64,000 nt of DNA from an uncultured Bacteroidales bacterium (lineage in GTDB: Bacteria; Bacteroidota; Bacteroidia; Bacteroidales; Bacteroidaceae), in the NCBI GenBank assembly GCA_902779875.1, contig CACZCX010000001.1, forward strand, positions 10,930 through 74,929, given 5' to 3'. A program made the position numbers and the translations under genes. This document shows, piece after piece, positions 6,271 through 59,156 of the stretch. Each line of letters begins with the position of its first letter. The stretch's first letter is position 1. The notes under the pieces are model-generated. The model did no database searches. It had not been told where the DNA came from and was given only the letters and a program-made list of their open reading frames with translations.

Positions 6271-7836
6271 TTATTGTTTTTTGTTTCCTGATTTAAAACC
6301 TCTTTTGGGTGCCGGGCGTCCACCCTCCTTGCGGAAGGGCTTCCCTTCGGATGATGACTTACGGAAGGGTTTTCCTTCGGATGATGACTTGCGGAACGGC
6401 TTTCCTTCGGATGATGACTTGCGGAACGGTTTTCCTTCGGATGAAGACTTACGGAACGGGCGGTCGCCTTCTCTGCGGAAACTGCGCTCACCATCCTTGC
6501 GGAAACCGTGCTCTCCTTCCTTACGGAAAGGTCTGGGCTTGGAGTCCTGAGGCCTGCGTGCAGGTCTCTTGGGCATCTCCGCTGACTCACCGTTCTCGCG
6601 TGCCTCCTGCTTCTCGGCCAGACGGGCCTTATGACGCAGGGTGCTGCTGCGGCGTGAGGGGAGGTCATCTTTCTTGAGGCGGCCTTCACCTCCGCGGAAA
6701 TCGTTGTATCGTCCGTCAAATATCTCATACTTGCGCAGCTCACATGGGAGAGCGCCGTTAAAGAGAGGAATCTTGGCAGAAGGTTTGAGCCCTATCTTGT
6801 CAAAGCACTCGTAGTGGTAGCTTATGATCCAGGCCTCACCGCCTATGAGGGCGTGCTTGAGTCGCTCACCTATCATCTCGTAGAGACCGAGCAGGTTGTC
6901 ATCGGTAAGACGCTCGCCGTAGGGCGGGTTGGTTACTATCACGGTTCGTTCCTTGACAGGCTCAAAGTCCTTGAAGTCACGCTGCTCGAACTGTATCACG
7001 TCAAGCAGGCCGGCAGCCTTGGCGTTGCGCTTGGCTGTCAGTATGGCCTTGGGGTCCTTGTCGTAACCCTTGATGCTGAACTCGAACTCACGCTCAGCAG
7101 AGTCATCGTTGTATATCTGCTCAAAGAGGTCGCGGTCAAAATCCTTCCATTTCTCAAAGGCGAAATGGCTGCGGAACAGGCCGGGTGCCATGTTCTTGGC
7201 TATGAGTGCAGCCTCGATGGGAATTGTTCCGGAGCCGCACATGGGATCCACGAAATCGGACTTGCCGTCCCAGCCGGACATGAGTATCATACCTGCTGCA
7301 AGTACTTCGTTCAGGGGAGCCTCCATGGCCTCCTGACGGTAACCGCGCTTGTGCAGTGACTCACCGGAGCTGTCGAGTGACAGCGAGCAGTCGTCATGTG
7401 AGATGTGGATGTGGAAAGTGAGGTCAGGGTTGGCCACACTTACGTTGGGGCGTTTGCCGTATTTGTCACGGAAATAGTCTGCAATTGCGTCTTTTACACG
7501 GTATGCCACGAACTTGGAGTGGCGGAAATCCTCACTGTAGACTACGGAGTCTACGGCAAAGCTGTCGGTTATGGACATGTACTTCTCCCAGTCAACCTTA
7601 CGGCAAATCTCATAGACCTCGTCGGCGCTGTCGGCCTTGAAGTGAAGGAAAGGTTTAAGGATGCGGATTGCAGAACGCAGATGAAAGTTGGCCTTGTACA
7701 GAAGGGCCTTGTCGCCCTTGAAGGATACCATGCGGTTACCAATGGCCACTCCATTGGCTCCCAACTCAATAAGTTCTTTTGCAAGAATCTCTTCCAGCCC
7801 CTGGAAGGTCTTGGCTATCATTTCAAATTCGGTCAT
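6271..7836 (-). CDS. THUMP-domain class I SAM-dependent RNA methyltransferase (RlmL/UPF0020-like) with a basic repeat C-terminal tail
   Basis: N-terminal THUMP-like region, then the SAM-binding motif DPMCGSGTIPIEA and the catalytic NPPYGERL. The last ~135 aa are Arg/Lys-rich FRK repeats. Confidence 0.85.
   Translation of the reverse strand: MTEFEMIAKTFQGLEEILAKELIELGANGVAIGNRMVSFKGDKALLYKANFHLRSAIRILKPFLHFKADSADEVYEICRKVDWEKYMSITDSFAVDSVVYSEDFRHSKFVAYRVKDAIADYFRDKYGKRPNVSVANPDLTFHIHISHDDCSLSLDSSGESLHKRGYRQEAMEAPLNEVLAAGMILMSGWDGKSDFVDPMCGSGTIPIEAALIAKNMAPGLFRSHFAFEKWKDFDRDLFEQIYNDDSAEREFEFSIKGYDKDPKAILTAKRNAKAAGLLDVIQFEQRDFKDFEPVKERTVIVTNPPYGERLTDDNLLGLYEMIGERLKHALIGGEAWIISYHYECFDKIGLKPSAKIPLFNGALPCELRKYEIFDGRYNDFRGGEGRLKKDDLPSRRSSTLRHKARLAEKQEARENGESAEMPKRPARRPQDSKPRPFRKEGEHGFRKDGERSFRREGDRPFRKSSSEGKPFRKSSSEGKPFRKSSSEGKPFRKSSSEGKPFRKEGGRPAPKRGFKSGNKKQ
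6331..6450. repeat. Four tandem 30-bp repeats inside the methyltransferase 3' end, each encoding KSSSEGKPFR
   Basis: Units at 6331-6360, 6361-6390, 6391-6420 and 6421-6450. Copies differ only at synonymous positions. Degenerate copies flank both sides. Confidence 0.95.
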
Positions 7837-7877: not shown

Positions 7878-7988
7878 AATTGAGAATTGAGAGTTGAAAA
7901 TTGAGAATTGAGAATTGCCATGCGGTGCGTGTATTCACGCAGGTGCTTGGTATTAATTCTCAATTCTCAATTTTCAATTTTCAATTTT
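7878..7988. repeat. Inverted pair of GAGAATT/AATTCTC heptamer arrays forming a long hairpin
   Basis: 7894-7916 (ttgaaaattgagaattgagaatt) is the perfect reverse complement of 7955-7977. The 38-nt loop carries its own 6-bp hairpin (7926-7931/7936-7941). The right arm abuts the GH31 stop codon at 7987. Confidence 0.95.
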
Positions 7989-15388: not shown

Positions 15389-15437
15389 GAGATCCTTATT
15401 TGTAGGGATTTCTCCTGATTTTTGGGTGAACATAAAG

Positions 15438-15467
15438 AAAAAGGCCAGTCTCACGACTAGCCTTTTT
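15438..15467. terminator. Bidirectional rho-independent terminator between the convergent SLT gene and metK
   Basis: aaaaaggccagtc-tcac-gactagccttttt: stem with an A-run and a T-run on either side. Confidence 0.55.
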
Positions 15468-15657
15468 CGACCTGTTTTTCCAACTAAATCACTTTTAGCG
15501 GCACTTCGCCGCGTCCTTGATATAAATTAGTCTGTTTACGAGACTTTTCTGCAAATCCCGGTGTTGCTCGGAACCTGCAGACACTATATTGAGTTCGTAA
15601 ATATCAAAAAGTTAATTCCAAAACAATAAGATTTCACTCAATTTAACATCTCGTCAG

Positions 15658-16953
15658 CTATTTTAAGCCGAATTCCTTACGGATTATGTCAACGTAATCG
15701 AGTTTTTCCCAGGTGAACAGCTCAACTGTTACGGTGCGCTGAGGCAGGTAATGTGATGTAAACACTTTTGTCACAACCTCAGGTGTGCGGCCCATATGAC
15801 CGTATGCTGCAGTCTCACTGTAAATGGGGTTACGCAGTTTGAGACGGTTCTCGATTGCCTTGGGTCTCATGTCGAATATACGGTCCACGATTCTGGCAAT
15901 CTCGGAGTCAGGCATATTCACATGACTTGTTCCGTAGGTGTTAACGAAAATGTTAATGGGTTTGGCTACGCCGATGGCGTATGAAACCTGTACCAGTACC
16001 TCATCGGCCACACCTGCTGCGACCAGGTTCTTGGCTATATGACGTGTGGCGTAGGCTGCCGAGCGGTCCACCTTACTGGGGTCCTTGCCGCTGAATGCGC
16101 CGCCTCCGTGGGCTCCCTTGCCGCCGTAGGTATCGACAATGATCTTACGGCCGGTGAGACCTGTATCTCCGTGGGGTCCGCCTATCACGAACTTACCTGT
16201 GGGGTTTACAAAATATTTAATGTCCTTGCCGAACAGGGCCTTCACCTTGCTTGAAGTGATGGTCTCAAGGACACGGGGTATCAGTATGTTCCTGACATCG
16301 GATTCAATCTTGGCAAGCATCTTGCGGTCAGCCTCGAGCTGTGCCTCGACTGTGGCGTTATCGGGAGCGATGAATTCGTCATGCTGTGTGGATACCACGA
16401 TGGTGTCAATGCGCTGGGGCTTGCCGTTGTCATTATACTCTACGGTAACCTGGCTCTTGGAGTCGGGACGCAGGTAGGTCATGACCTTGCCCTCACGGCG
16501 TATCTCTGCAAGCACGCGCAGTATGCGGTGTGAGAGTGCCAGGGATACGGGCATGTACTCCTCTGTCTCATTGGTGGCGTAACCGAACATCATGCCCTGG
16601 TCGCCGGCACCCTGATTCTCGGGGTCCTCGCGCTCCACGCCACGGTTAATGTCGGCGCTCTGCTCATGAATGGCGCTGAATACACCGCAGGAGTCTCCGT
16701 CAAACTTGTACTCGGAGCGGGTATAGCCAATACGGTTAATCACTCGGCGGGCAGTCTCCTGCAGGTCAATATAGGCCTGTGACTTTACCTCACCTGCAAG
16801 CACCACCTGACCGGTGGTTACAAGGGTCTCACATGCGACCTTTGAGTCTGGATCAAAGGCCAGGAGTTCGTCTACGACAGCATCGGATATCTGATCCGCT
16901 ACTTTGTCTGGGTGTCCCTCGGACACCGATTCGGATGTGAATAAGTATGACAT
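15658..16953 (-). CDS. metK: S-adenosylmethionine synthase
   Basis: [19 protein letters not shown] and [16 protein letters not shown] motifs. 431 aa, collinear with MetK. Confidence 0.97.
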
Positions 16954-16960
16954 AGGGCCG

Positions 16961-16968
16961 CAAAGGTA
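16961..16968 (-). promoter_or_regulatory. -7 promoter box (TACCTTTG) for metK
   Basis: Exact TAnnTTTG on the minus strand with only 7 nt between the box and the metK ATG (16953). Confidence 0.5.
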
Positions 16969-16980
16969 CGATTAAATTTT

Positions 16981-17013
16981 GAATTGAGAATTGAGAATTG
17001 AGAATTGAGAATT
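16981..17013. repeat. Tandem heptamer array (GAATTGA x4.7 on the plus strand, AATTCTC on the metK strand)
   Basis: Four perfect 7-nt units plus a partial unit. The array fills the gap between the DPP3 stop (17012-17014, overlapping the last unit) and the metK promoter box. Confidence 0.95.
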
Positions 17014-19006
17014 ATAGTGTAGCGTATTTGTGGCCGTAGTCAAGCTGCTGCTTAAGGTAGTCATCGTTGTAGATTACCTCATAATCCACGACCTTGCCGT
17101 CCTTCATGACCGGAACGATATCAGGGTTGATGAAACCTCCGTAAGGTTTGAGGTTCAGGGCCTCATAACGCTGCTTTATCTCCTTGTGGAGTTCGGGATC
17201 TATGTTCACGGCGTAGGTCTCGATAAGGTATTTGCCGGCCTCGTAGTCTCCCTCGGACTTTATGCGCTGTATCTCTGCCAGCAGTTCACCGAACAGGAGG
17301 CGCAGCTTGTCAAAGTCATTGACCACGAAATAGGTCTTGCCGTCACGGACCTTCTTCTCTATGACGTTGTCCTTGAGTCCCTTCTCATAGCACCACTCGG
17401 ATATGAGCTTGCGGTTCTGCATGTGGGCCTCGGTATTGGGACGTCCCAGTTCCACACGTGTGAACTGTTCTATCAGACCGTTGCGGATATATTTGGAGTA
17501 TCCAGCCTTGTAGGCCTCCTTATCGGGCATAATTCCCAGTTCCACCATCTTGGGGTCAGCTATGTAGTAGAGTCCGAAAAGGTCGGCACGAGCCTCCTCC
17601 AGGGCCGATGAATACTCACCCATGGCAGTGGTCGATACTCCCGGCAGAAGCTGTCCCGAACCATGGCCCAGACACTCGTGCAGGTCGGTATGAATCTCAT
17701 CGGCATAAGAACCCCACTTAAGGTACAACTCTTTCTCCTCTTCATCCCATGCGAACTCGTCGAGAGTGCTTTTGGGGGATTCCTGTGCCGCATAGGTATA
17801 AGCGTGTGTTATGTTGGCTATGGTCACCGACTTGCTTCCGTACATCTTGCGTATCCAGTCTGCGTTGGGCAGGTTAATTCCTATGGGAGTGGCAGGATAG
17901 GAGTCACCGGCCAGGCAGACGGCGTTCACCACCTTGGCCGATATACCGGTGCATTTGGCCTTCTTGAACCTGGCATCCACGGGTGAGTTGTCCTCAAACC
18001 ACTGCGCGTTGGCGCTAAGTATGTCGGAACGCTCCGATGCCTTATGGTCCTTTATGTTCACATAACCCTCCCAGGCTCCCTTTCGGCCCAGCGGGTCGTT
18101 ATAATCCTCCACGAATCCGTTTATGAAGTCAACGGTACCTATGGTATCCTTGACCCATTCTATGTTGAACTCATCCCATACCTTGAGGTCGCCGGTCTCG
18201 TAGTATTTTACAAGCAGCCCCAGGGCACGTTTCTGAATGTCATTCTCGGCGCACTCGGCAGCCAGCCTGAGTTCCCCGCATATCTTGGTTATGGCAGGTC
18301 CGTACATGCCGTCAATCTTCCAGGGAATCTCCACGATATTGCCGTCGGCATCCTTTGTAACCTTGGTGTTCAGGCCATAGGCGATGGGAGTCTCATCGGT
18401 CTTGTCCTCAACGGATTCGTAGTATTTCTCAACTTCGGCACGGGTTACGCCCTCGTAGAAGTTGCCTGCCGACAGGACTACTATGTCACCGTCAGTTGAT
18501 GTCGAGCGGCGCTGCTGCAGGGTGTTGGGATCATAGATGAGGGGAAGCAGCTCTGCGCATTTGTCACCCTCGCCCACAGCCTCCATCAGAGACTTGAAAT
18601 ACTCCTGTGAGCACTCCGGGAAGAACTTGTCCTCGGCATAGTGATGATGTATGCCGTTGGCAAAGAAGAGCCTTTTTGCATACACTGTGAACTGTTCAAA
18701 GTCCTTGGTGTTACGGTCACCCTTGTAATTTTCAAGGATGTTCTCAACCACGTGACGTATGGGCAGGTTCCATTTGCAGTTCTGGTCCCAATGGATGTCA
18801 CGGCCCCATTTGGCAGCTTCGGCCAGATGGAAGGCATACTCTTTCTGCTGCAGGGTCAGCTCGTCCCAGCCGGGTATGGTGAAACGCATCACCTTGAGGT
18901 CGGCAAACTCGTCAAGCAGATACTTGAAATCACTTTTCTTCTCTCCACAACCGGCTGTGATTGCCAGCAATCCGGATATCATCATAATTCTAACAATAGA
19001 TTTCAT
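17012..19006 (-). CDS. Dipeptidyl-peptidase III family metallopeptidase (M49), lipoprotein
   Basis: Zinc motifs HECLGH (HExxGH) and EEARAD (EExR[AK][ED]). Lipobox LLAITAGC. Confidence 0.85.
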   Translation of the reverse strand: MKSIVRIMMISGLLAITAGCGEKKSDFKYLLDEFADLKVMRFTIPGWDELTLQQKEYAFHLAEAAKWGRDIHWDQNCKWNLPIRHVVENILENYKGDRNTKDFEQFTVYAKRLFFANGIHHHYAEDKFFPECSQEYFKSLMEAVGEGDKCAELLPLIYDPNTLQQRRSTSTDGDIVVLSAGNFYEGVTRAEVEKYYESVEDKTDETPIAYGLNTKVTKDADGNIVEIPWKIDGMYGPAITKICGELRLAAECAENDIQKRALGLLVKYYETGDLKVWDEFNIEWVKDTIGTVDFINGFVEDYNDPLGRKGAWEGYVNIKDHKASERSDILSANAQWFEDNSPVDARFKKAKCTGISAKVVNAVCLAGDSYPATPIGINLPNADWIRKMYGSKSVTIANITHAYTYAAQESPKSTLDEFAWDEEEKELYLKWGSYADEIHTDLHECLGHGSGQLLPGVSTTAMGEYSSALEEARADLFGLYYIADPKMVELGIMPDKEAYKAGYSKYIRNGLIEQFTRVELGRPNTEAHMQNRKLISEWCYEKGLKDNVIEKKVRDGKTYFVVNDFDKLRLLFGELLAEIQRIKSEGDYEAGKYLIETYAVNIDPELHKEIKQRYEALNLKPYGGFINPDIVPVMKDGKVVDYEVIYNDDYLKQQLDYGHKYATL

Positions 19007-34168: not shown

Positions 34169-34198
34169 TTAATTCTCAATTCTCAATTCTCAATTTCA
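34169..34198. repeat. Tandem heptamer array (AATTCTC x3 plus a degenerate unit) between truB and queA
   Basis: ttaattctcaattctcaattctcaatttca. The last units overlap the truB stop and the final codons (…IEIEN*). Confidence 0.95.
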
Positions 34199-34884
34199 AT
34201 GTCCGCCACGTCCAGCCACTCCGAGAATTTCTCGGGGTTCAGGCAATCTTCAACCTTGAATTCACCTACACGGGTGCGCCTTAAGGCTATCAGATGTCCT
34301 CCGCTCTCGAGAGCCTGACCGATGTCACGGGCAAGCGCCCTTATGTATGTTCCCTTGCTGCAGACCACGCGGATGGTTATGTCCGGCAGGTTGCACTCGG
34401 TAAGTTCAATCTCGTCAATGACCAGCGTCTTGGGTTTGAGTTCCACCTCCTGTCCGCCGCGGGCCATCTTGTAGGCGCGCTTGCCATCGACCTTGCAGGC
34501 CGAGAAGGTTGGCGGTACCTGCTCAATCTTTCCCTTGAAACGCTCCAGCACCTGCTCTACCATCTCACGGGTGATATGCTCCGTGGGGTAGGTGGCGTCT
34601 ATCGGTTTTTCAAGGTCGTATGAGGGAGTGGTGGCTCCCAGCCTTATGGTCGCCAGGTACTCCTTTGTTCCCGCCTGCAGCTCGTCTATACGTTTGGTGG
34701 CACGTCCGGTGCATACTATCAGGACTCCGGTGGCCAGAGGGTCGAGAGTGCCGGCATGACCCACCTTGAGTTTCTTGACACCGATGCGGCGGCATATGAG
34801 CCAGCGCACCTTGCCGACCACATCGAACGATGTCCAGCGGTATGGCTTATCGAACGCAAGTATTACTCCTTCCTGGAAATTCAT
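34183..34884 (-). CDS. truB: tRNA pseudouridine(55) synthase
   Basis: KPYRWTSFDVV and GHAGTLDPLATGVL catalytic-Asp motif. Confidence 0.93.
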   Translation of the reverse strand: MNFQEGVILAFDKPYRWTSFDVVGKVRWLICRRIGVKKLKVGHAGTLDPLATGVLIVCTGRATKRIDELQAGTKEYLATIRLGATTPSYDLEKPIDATYPTEHITREMVEQVLERFKGKIEQVPPTFSACKVDGKRAYKMARGGQEVELKPKTLVIDEIELTECNLPDITIRVVCSKGTYIRALARDIGQALESGGHLIALRRTRVGEFKVEDCLNPEKFSEWLDVADIEIEN

Positions 34885-59124: not shown

Positions 59125-59156
59125 AATTCTCAATTCTCAATTCTCAATTCTCAATT
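59125..59156. repeat. Tandem heptamer array (AATTCTC x4.6) upstream of ahcY
   Basis: Four perfect units plus a partial unit. The array ends 6 nt before the ahcY -7 box. Confidence 0.95.

Follow-up and report, generated by a model that had tools for sequence, protein, structure and literature searches.

Probable deletion of a SAM-II long-loop riboswitch upstream of metK, beside one copy of a dispersed heptanucleotide repeat family, in a Bacteroidales genome

What drives and controls metK, the gene for S-adenosylmethionine (SAM) synthetase, when its start codon lies only 58 nt (16954..17011) from the stop codon of the gene upstream, here called DPP3, and a tandem heptamer array reaches into that stop codon? 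The question was raised by an earlier note on a stretch of 64,000 nucleotides, hereafter the window, from a 2.1-Mb genome of an uncultured Bacteroidales bacterium. On the minus strand, the junction reads ...ACACTA-TAA-TTCTCAA x4-TTC-AAAATTTAATCG-TACCTTTG-CGGCCCT-ATG, so the gap consists of 31 nt of array past the stop, 12 nt, an 8-nt box and 7 nt (Table 1). The earlier note had described 12 nt plus 4.7 heptamers overlapping the stop codon, which is accurate, Tandem Repeats Finder returning 100% matches and the AA of the DPP3 TAA being the first two bases of the first array unit. Since conservation of the MetK N-terminus (17 residues) begins with residue 1 in all the relatives, this ATG is the true start; besides, at least 23 contigs of other metagenome assemblies encode an identical MetK. 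Outside the genus, the named sequences nearest to MetK belong to Bacteroidaceae, with an identity of up to 80%.

Table 1. Features of the DPP3-metK junction and heptamer arrays of the window, with their coordinates.
Feature	Position	Strand	Description and basis
Intrinsic terminator 3' of metK	15437..15468	-	14-bp stem followed by a T-run; terminator scan
metK (S-adenosylmethionine synthetase)	15658..16953	-	431 aa, intact; all three SAM-synthetase Pfam domains, E 1e-42 to 1e-62
Spacer CGGCCCT (7 nt) between box and metK ATG	16954..16960	-	Holds the putative deletion junction; alignment with nine congeners
Box TACCTTTG	16961..16968	-	Bacteroidetes sigma-A -7 box (TAnnTTTG), ancestral promoter of metK/riboswitch; congener conservation
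AAAATTTAATCG (12 nt) between heptamer array and box	16969..16980	-	No TTTG -33 element; read from the sequence
Solo AATTCTC heptamer array at metK	16981..17013	-	Period 7, 4.7 copies, 100% matches; Tandem Repeats Finder
M49 (DPP3-like) peptidase gene	17012..19006	-	664 aa; Pfam PF03571; directly upstream of metK, co-directional
Inverted array pair	7878..7988	.	Arms 7878-7917 and 7955-7988 round a small hairpin; flanked by a gene 3' end and by a TATCTTTG promoter; -45.6 kcal/mol, z -9
Solo heptamer array	34171..34200	+	4.4 copies; overlaps the stop codon of a minus-strand gene; reversed relative to transcription
Solo heptamer array	59125..59156	+	4.6 copies; 6 nt upstream of the ahcY TATCTTTG box

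Regarding RNA-based control, the earlier note had claimed that the space upstream of metK is too short for a riboswitch, and had proposed covariance-model scans of its upstream region; these were run and, together with the 58-nt gap, bear the absence out. A permissive Rfam scan of positions 16400-17900 on both strands gave a lone chance-level match, located inside metK, and a scan of the whole window at the gathering thresholds gave no match at all. At the level of the assembled genome, neither SAM-I (RF00162) nor SAM-II long-loop (RF01726) was matched, nor was SAM-II alpha (RF00521), the latter being a weak negative as the model was silent in all 14 control genomes too; no other family of Rfam 15 gave a relevant match in the metK upstream or DPP3 3' region. 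With a genome 86.5% complete, the lack of any SAM riboswitch applies to its assembled part. A riboswitch hidden in the DPP3 3' end or on the opposite strand was also considered and discarded, the permissive 1.5-kb scan having returned nothing relevant.

In related genomes the situation is different. Taking as members of RF01726 the sequences upstream of metK that reach at least the gathering cut-off of 44 bits, this riboswitch immediately precedes metK in 15 of the 19 loci scanned in relatives, at 47-53 bits, versus no match at the twentieth, i.e. the locus under study, nor anywhere else in the window or its genome. Exactly one match over the cut-off was found in 43 of 59 genomes of the genus versus none here, and the motif precedes metK in 12 of 20 loci from wider Bacteroidota. 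The premise of the earlier note that many Bacteroidetes place metK under a SAM riboswitch is then correct, the class being SAM-II long-loop, a SAM-II variant of Bacteroidetes and marine origin (Weinberg et al. 2010, PMC2864571). RF01726 is missing from 16 of the 59 congeners and 8 of the 20 other Bacteroidota loci, with at least three other upstream configurations, and the loss of the riboswitch in single lineages is not surprising by itself.

Alignment with the congeners indicates how the leader could have been lost. In most of them, the riboswitch fills the exact site between the same box and metK, the order in relatives being GTACCTTTGCAGCGGACAATGTGGAAAGATTTG..., aptamer, hairpin with T-run and ATG; the order DPP3, riboswitch, metK is also found at four congener loci (L002, L006, L008 and L010). 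The box is conserved as TA(C/A/T)CTTTG, with CAGCGG, upstream of the riboswitch in nine congeners (L002 and L004-L011), and the GCAGCGG following TACCTTTG is kept as well in nine riboswitch-bearing congeners, the conserved TACCTTTGCAGCGGACAATGTGG... of the relatives contrasting with TACCTTTGCGGCCCT-ATG in this genome. Since the relatives share the box and several of them the gene order, and since the distance from box to ATG is 132-175 nt in those bearing the riboswitch versus 7 nt here, the simplest reading is a clean deletion of approximately 125-150 nt. Starting from an ancestor organised as the congeners are, with the sigma-A promoter (TACCTTTG) followed by a SAM-II long-loop aptamer, by a hairpin resembling a terminator, with its T-run, and finally by metK, this event, as the alignment shows, removed aptamer and hairpin, kept the ancestral promoter and joined its box to a point 7 nt before the metK ATG.

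The deletion is fixed throughout the assemblies at hand. One and the same junction occurs in 11 of 11 assemblies, that is the present one and ten independent metagenome contigs that were read, all encoding an identical MetK, and the 12 nt and the box next to the array are invariant across them. As the metagenome-derived assembly is fragmented (74 contigs) and repeats collapse easily, the short gap might be taken for an assembly error in which collapse of the repeat lost the riboswitch; however, the ten contigs come from different samples and assemblers, and the missing segment is located downstream of the promoter box, outside the repeat. The chance of such an artefact is practically nil and, at the level of assemblies, the independent contigs rule it out for this junction. 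In the closest relative, G015, where the MetK fragment is 98% identical, the 5' half of metK is not assembled and a different gene follows DPP3. Taken as a whole, the explanation favoured here, namely deletion of the riboswitch at metK together with an array that is merely a copy of a dispersed repeat, is considered highly probable. It would provide a clean natural case of riboswitch loss, with the same flanking genes and promoter box, some 125-150 nt gone, and sister species that keep the SAM-II long-loop switch. In other words, a matched species pair would be at hand for studying SAM homeostasis once metK loses its RNA feedback, as well as any replacement of that feedback.

What is left upstream of metK is a core promoter in an unusual position. 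The congener-conserved box, at 16968..16961, conforms to TAnnTTTG, the Bacteroidetes sigma-A -7 element, a consensus also derived in PMC7366714. No TTTG is present at the -33 position, about 19-21 nt upstream of this box, where AATTCTCAATTC is found, i.e. array sequence devoid of TTG, and because of this the metK promoter could be weak; of note, the -33 motif is frequently undetectable in Bacteroidetes (PMC7366714). Since TAnnTTTG occupies -12 to -5 relative to the start site in Bacteroidetes (PMC9723704) and the box stops 7 nt short of the ATG, the predicted metK leader measures some 3 nt (0-5 nt with normal wobble). The earlier note had deduced from this same spacing that metK is nearly leaderless, and the deduction is sound as far as motif positions go.

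Short leaders are not foreign to these bacteria, as 3.7% of the 5' UTRs are below 10 nt in B. thetaiotaomicron (PMC7366714) and 5.5% of the mRNAs are leaderless in F. psychrophilum (PMC9723704). When the distance from the ATG to the nearest TAnnTTTG was tallied over the whole genome with a crude ORF set, most of the signal in the histogram fell at 17-28 nt (main mode), and there were also a sharp second maximum of 15 genes at exactly 4 nt and 26 genes at 7-9 nt, for a chance expectation of about 0.5 per position. The 15 genes at 4 nt, typically arranged as TAnnTTTGCAGT-ATG, imply that a sizeable set of truly leaderless mRNAs is to be expected in this Bacteroidales species. metK would then have joined an existing short-leader class of about 50 genes and be no singular oddity. 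It resembles the leaderless or short-leader mRNAs of other Bacteroidetes by the spacing of its box and the leader predicted from it, but differs in that this leader would be short secondarily, through the loss of a riboswitch leader.

Transcription from further upstream has to be considered as well. On the minus strand, from the DPP3 gene through the end of metK, the terminator scan detected a single terminator-like site, the one located after metK, and none between DPP3 and metK; with no terminator intervening and a strong one following, read-through from DPP3 is a second likely source of metK mRNA. The metK mRNA probably carries a 0-5-nt leader transcribed from the retained promoter, and/or arises by read-through from the string of genes that includes DPP3; in both cases it would escape RNA-based SAM feedback, the riboswitch being gone. 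A stronger version of the read-through view holds that the retained box has lost its role as main promoter and that metK is mostly expressed as the last gene of an EamA-DPP3-metK string, the array being an unstructured intercistronic spacer. Besides the distribution of terminators, this would agree with the absence of a -33 element, with a solo array that, having no partner, forms no hairpin, and with two riboswitch-less congeners (L021 and L022) in which metK directly follows another gene after a short gap. Yet the box and the 12 nt preceding it are invariant in all 11 assemblies when the adjoining array is variable, and there is a clear class of genes in this genome with the box 4-9 nt from the ATG. 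Moreover, the bases just 5' of the metK ATG (GCGGCCCT) are GC-rich, in contrast to the A/T-rich sequence found in riboswitch-bearing relatives, and translation of read-through transcripts may be poor for this reason. Read-through as the main source of metK mRNA is on balance somewhat unlikely, and the retained promoter is preferred, with read-through as a supplement. A side observation concerns the folding of this region: on the minus strand of positions 16924-17040, the DPP3 3' end (GGCCACAAAUACG) and the promoter region (CGUACCUUUGCGGCC) are able to form a stem, looping out the array (-13.4 kcal/mol, z -2.7), which is likely a coincidence between coding and promoter sequence.

With no riboswitch left, the earlier note had pointed to the array as the obvious candidate for feedback control of metK, and this claim is not supported by genome-wide mapping. 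A two-unit heptamer pattern allowing up to two mismatches gave 17 matches in the window versus 0.52 expected, and AATTCTC arrays number five in the window and 57 in the genome. Regarding their contexts, 33 lie between tandem and 19 between convergent genes, none between divergent genes, three inside one ORF and two at contig edges; in other words, 52 of the 57 are intergenic, in a genome of which about 92% is called coding. Most are found at gene 3' ends or flank terminators, in both orientations and next to unrelated genes, which is not what a gene-specific operator at the promoters of linked genes in a fixed orientation would display. Translation and reading by eye of 19 genes downstream of arrays gave mixed functions with no common theme, including a THUMP methyltransferase, ahcY, an alcohol dehydrogenase, rpsB, ung, holB and mraY, as well as a GH3 glycosidase, galM, pheT, aroC and rfbB. 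A SAM regulon marked by the arrays was considered and rejected on the strength of the mapping and these translations. Four of the five arrays in the window do adjoin SAM-linked genes, but there is no such link genome-wide, which stands as a warning against over-reading a local coincidence.

Heptad arrays do act as operators elsewhere, for instance those of the omega repressor of plasmid pSM19035. Another example is the TTTTGAT heptads of a Vibrio cholerae promoter, whose number correlates with promoter activity (10.1101/2021.05.14.444153). By analogy, the array at metK could be the operator of a DNA-binding regulator that replaced the riboswitch in SAM or methionine feedback, perhaps shared with ahcY and other SAM-linked genes, all the more as it occupies the position of the would-be -33 element and as arrays of the window also adjoin ahcY, the THUMP-type methyltransferase gene and the truB/queA junction. 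Indeed, 7-bp tandem units just upstream of a core promoter, with a strain-variable copy number, are common to both situations, but the known operators are limited to a few promoters with a known binding protein, whereas AATTCTC arrays are genome-wide and mostly at gene 3' ends. Against an operator also stand the lack of any array in divergent intergenic regions, the solo arrays present in both orientations relative to transcription, the functionally unrelated genes downstream and the variation in length at metK itself, where three, four or five units, with AATTCAA variants too, occur among the 11 independent assemblies. Furthermore, many congeners have no such arrays, and two metK loci of congeners carry one upstream of the promoter while keeping the riboswitch, L008 having the complete element and L009 an AATCCTC/AATTTTC array without a partner; since array and riboswitch occur together there, the array is no substitute for the riboswitch. 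An operator role is thus very improbable, and the array at metK is one copy of a genome-wide repeat family with no metK-specific operator function.

This variation in length could alternatively make the array a contingency locus, slippage tuning metK promoter strength or DPP3-metK coupling from strain to strain. The polymorphism of three to five copies and the unit variants among natural assemblies, the position immediately upstream of the core promoter and the Vibrio cholerae precedent would fit. Conversely, arrays at 3' ends or between convergent genes cannot act in this way, the array at ahcY shows but a point variant in three other assemblies, and the constancy of the promoter-proximal 12 nt and box means that gain or loss of units leaves the core promoter geometry unchanged. 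Such a role is regarded as quite unlikely, and the length of what is best read as a local repeat copy would change presumably by slippage. Wherever an array faces a gene start, a -7 box follows 6-13 nt further on in the six cases inspected out of six (four in this genome and two at relatives' metK loci), and for this reason a general, non-specific influence of arrays on promoter strength is possible; it is also possible that a DNA-binding SAM- or methionine-responsive regulator acts elsewhere.

The family to which the array belongs has a marked architecture. Among the short tandem repeats of the genome, those of period 7 alone are abundant: of the exact arrays of at least three period-7 units, 24 of 26 are AATTCTC, and the other periods within 5-11 give 0-2. 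As many as 30 arrays form 15 inverted pairs, most of which enclose a terminator hairpin, and the inner part of the pairs is modular, being a bidirectional terminator (A-run, hairpin and T-run), AATGTCGCGGG, ACGCAGGTnCTGCGTATT or GGCCATCCGGTGCGTATT. Most of the complete copies hold conserved core modules (AATGTCGCGGG, ACGCAGGTnCTGCGTATT and GGCCATCCGGTGCG) along with an intrinsic terminator, and the computed folding energy of one complete element is -77.6 kcal/mol (z -14). It is common for arrays to adjoin stop codons or to provide them; in the reverse orientation, the repeat holds TGA in all three frames, and in the forward orientation no stop in any frame. In the reading favoured here, the complete form consists of inverted arms round an intrinsic terminator, and the array at metK is a local copy of this dispersed heptanucleotide family, which occupies dispensable space between genes as far as the stop codons and the promoter boxes.

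Tandem heptanucleotide repeats have been named STRR in cyanobacteria, and the AATTCTC family shares with them a 7-nt tandem unit, many loci above chance, an intergenic bias and length variation. Dispersed, intergenic tandem heptanucleotides occur in the cyanobacterium Calothrix (cited in PMC4692102), and GGGAATC repeats in Xanthomonas and Nostoc form inverted pairs between convergent genes with a length varying between close relatives (PMC4692102). TAACTGA repeats are reported from Beggiatoaceae, cyanobacteria and five Bacteroidetes, with sister strains lacking the repeat at a given site and no theme among downstream genes (PMC4679880). AATTCTC arrays resemble all these by a few copies per site at tens to hundreds of strongly intergenic sites, inverted pairs between convergent genes, variable length, absence at sister sites and lack of a theme among neighbours. 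They differ by a unit that is not G-rich (AATTCTC here, CCAATAG in congeners), by reaching and often supplying stop codons, and by the intrinsic terminator and conserved core modules enclosed in most of their complete copies. A literature search, in which the exact repeat gave unrelated primer matches only, found no published description of this family for rumen Bacteroidales. The AATTCTC family then fits the dispersed heptanucleotide repeats of the published kind and adds to them enclosed terminators, core modules and two heptamer families in one genus. For an unexplained class of repeats it is unusually informative, since its cores are modular, it encloses terminators and provides stop codons, and a single genus holds two heptamer families.

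Across the genus, the distribution of these repeats is patchy. Among 60 genomes, the AATTCTC pattern has no match in 33 and up to 154 in one, versus none for the reversed control pattern; 16 of the 60 carry a second heptamer family, CCAATAG, which this genome lacks, the reversed control again giving none. At one site compared in detail, a 123-nt element (C12:17927-18049) reaches both stop codons at a place occupied in four relatives by a plain terminator of 30-50 nt, i.e. filled and empty versions of an orthologous site, as for MITE- or REP-like repeats, with no target-site duplication visible at this one site. Likewise, the ahcY site has no array in G008 and G003, and in G018 its rpsO-ahcY spacer (L160/L163) holds an inverted CCAATAG/CTAATAG pair round a CCATCCGGTGCG core. 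As a separate observation, CCAATAG/CTAATAG/CCAACAG arrays of this second family are also found upstream of metK in G023 (L020), with the same architecture and CCATCCGGTGCG core as AATTCTC. The core module GGCC(A/T)CCATCCGGTGCG is common to arrays of different heptamers, AATTCTC in this genome and CCAATAG in G018 and others. As cores are shared when arms differ, a recognition protein or mobilising enzyme co-varying with the heptamer might exist, as part of the tentative cassette proposal given below.

REP/BIME, Correia and MITE-like repeats are dispersed, modular and palindromic, lie after genes and can terminate transcription. The AATTCTC elements are akin to them in being dispersed, modular, palindromic, present or absent at orthologous sites and patchy among species, and in that Y1-transposase (RAYT-like) genes occur in this genome. 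In contrast, their arms are tandem heptamers instead of unique inverted repeats, no target-site duplication was seen, and neither of the two Y1_Tnp-like genes of the genome is array-flanked. Y1 genes are present in 21 of the 27 genus genomes with arrays and in 9 of the 33 without, a comparison confounded by relatedness. A tentative and rather unlikely proposal is that the arrays form the arms of a mobile or actively maintained system of terminator cassettes, which would supply stop codons, replace terminators, cover the promoter -33 zone and apparently enter coding sequence in frame. If true, cassettes would drive regulatory rewiring in the small genomes of rumen Bacteroidales, and the strength of the metK promoter, now devoid of a riboswitch, may depend on the array.

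A few further observations touch on arrays and other repeats outside the metK junction. At C8:129000-129563, outside the window, the sole PF05635 gene of the genome (tblastn) has inverted heptamer arrays with ACGCAGG modules on either side in a cargo-like manner, a single case; PF05635 is the family of 23S rRNA-intervening-sequence proteins, which adopt a four-helix bundle. Also outside the window, three AATTCTC arrays are in frame within a 658-aa ORF (C19:39164-41140, minus strand, of this genome, G000) and encode ...YQLSIFNSQLSI..., ...NFQFSILNFQL... and ...YQFSILNSHFSI...; its C-terminal end (NLLDRKY...YLNLTFEL) looks by eye like that of a TonB-dependent receptor, Pfam giving no match at E<=0.001, and repeat-derived sequence may have been taken up there as a beta-strand-like peptide. 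Within the window, a 30-nt tandem repeat of 4.4 copies at 6328-6461, in the 3' part of the THUMP-methyltransferase-like gene, encodes ...SSSEGKPFRK... units. Another repeat of the same genome opens with ACGCAGGT-N5-(C/G)GT(A/G)TT and is found at C4:48538, C12:124206, C12:15577, C17:108383, C36:15962 and C36:13449, these six copies continuing into the extension GG(G/A)GCGA(A)G(C/T)GAGT...GAGCGAGAGCGGCCGG...GGCCGCC, then a small hairpin and an A-run; a further copy at C8:66335 is without this common extension. At least five of the six extended copies adjoin a tRNA-like sequence, as judged by eye, on the opposite strand.
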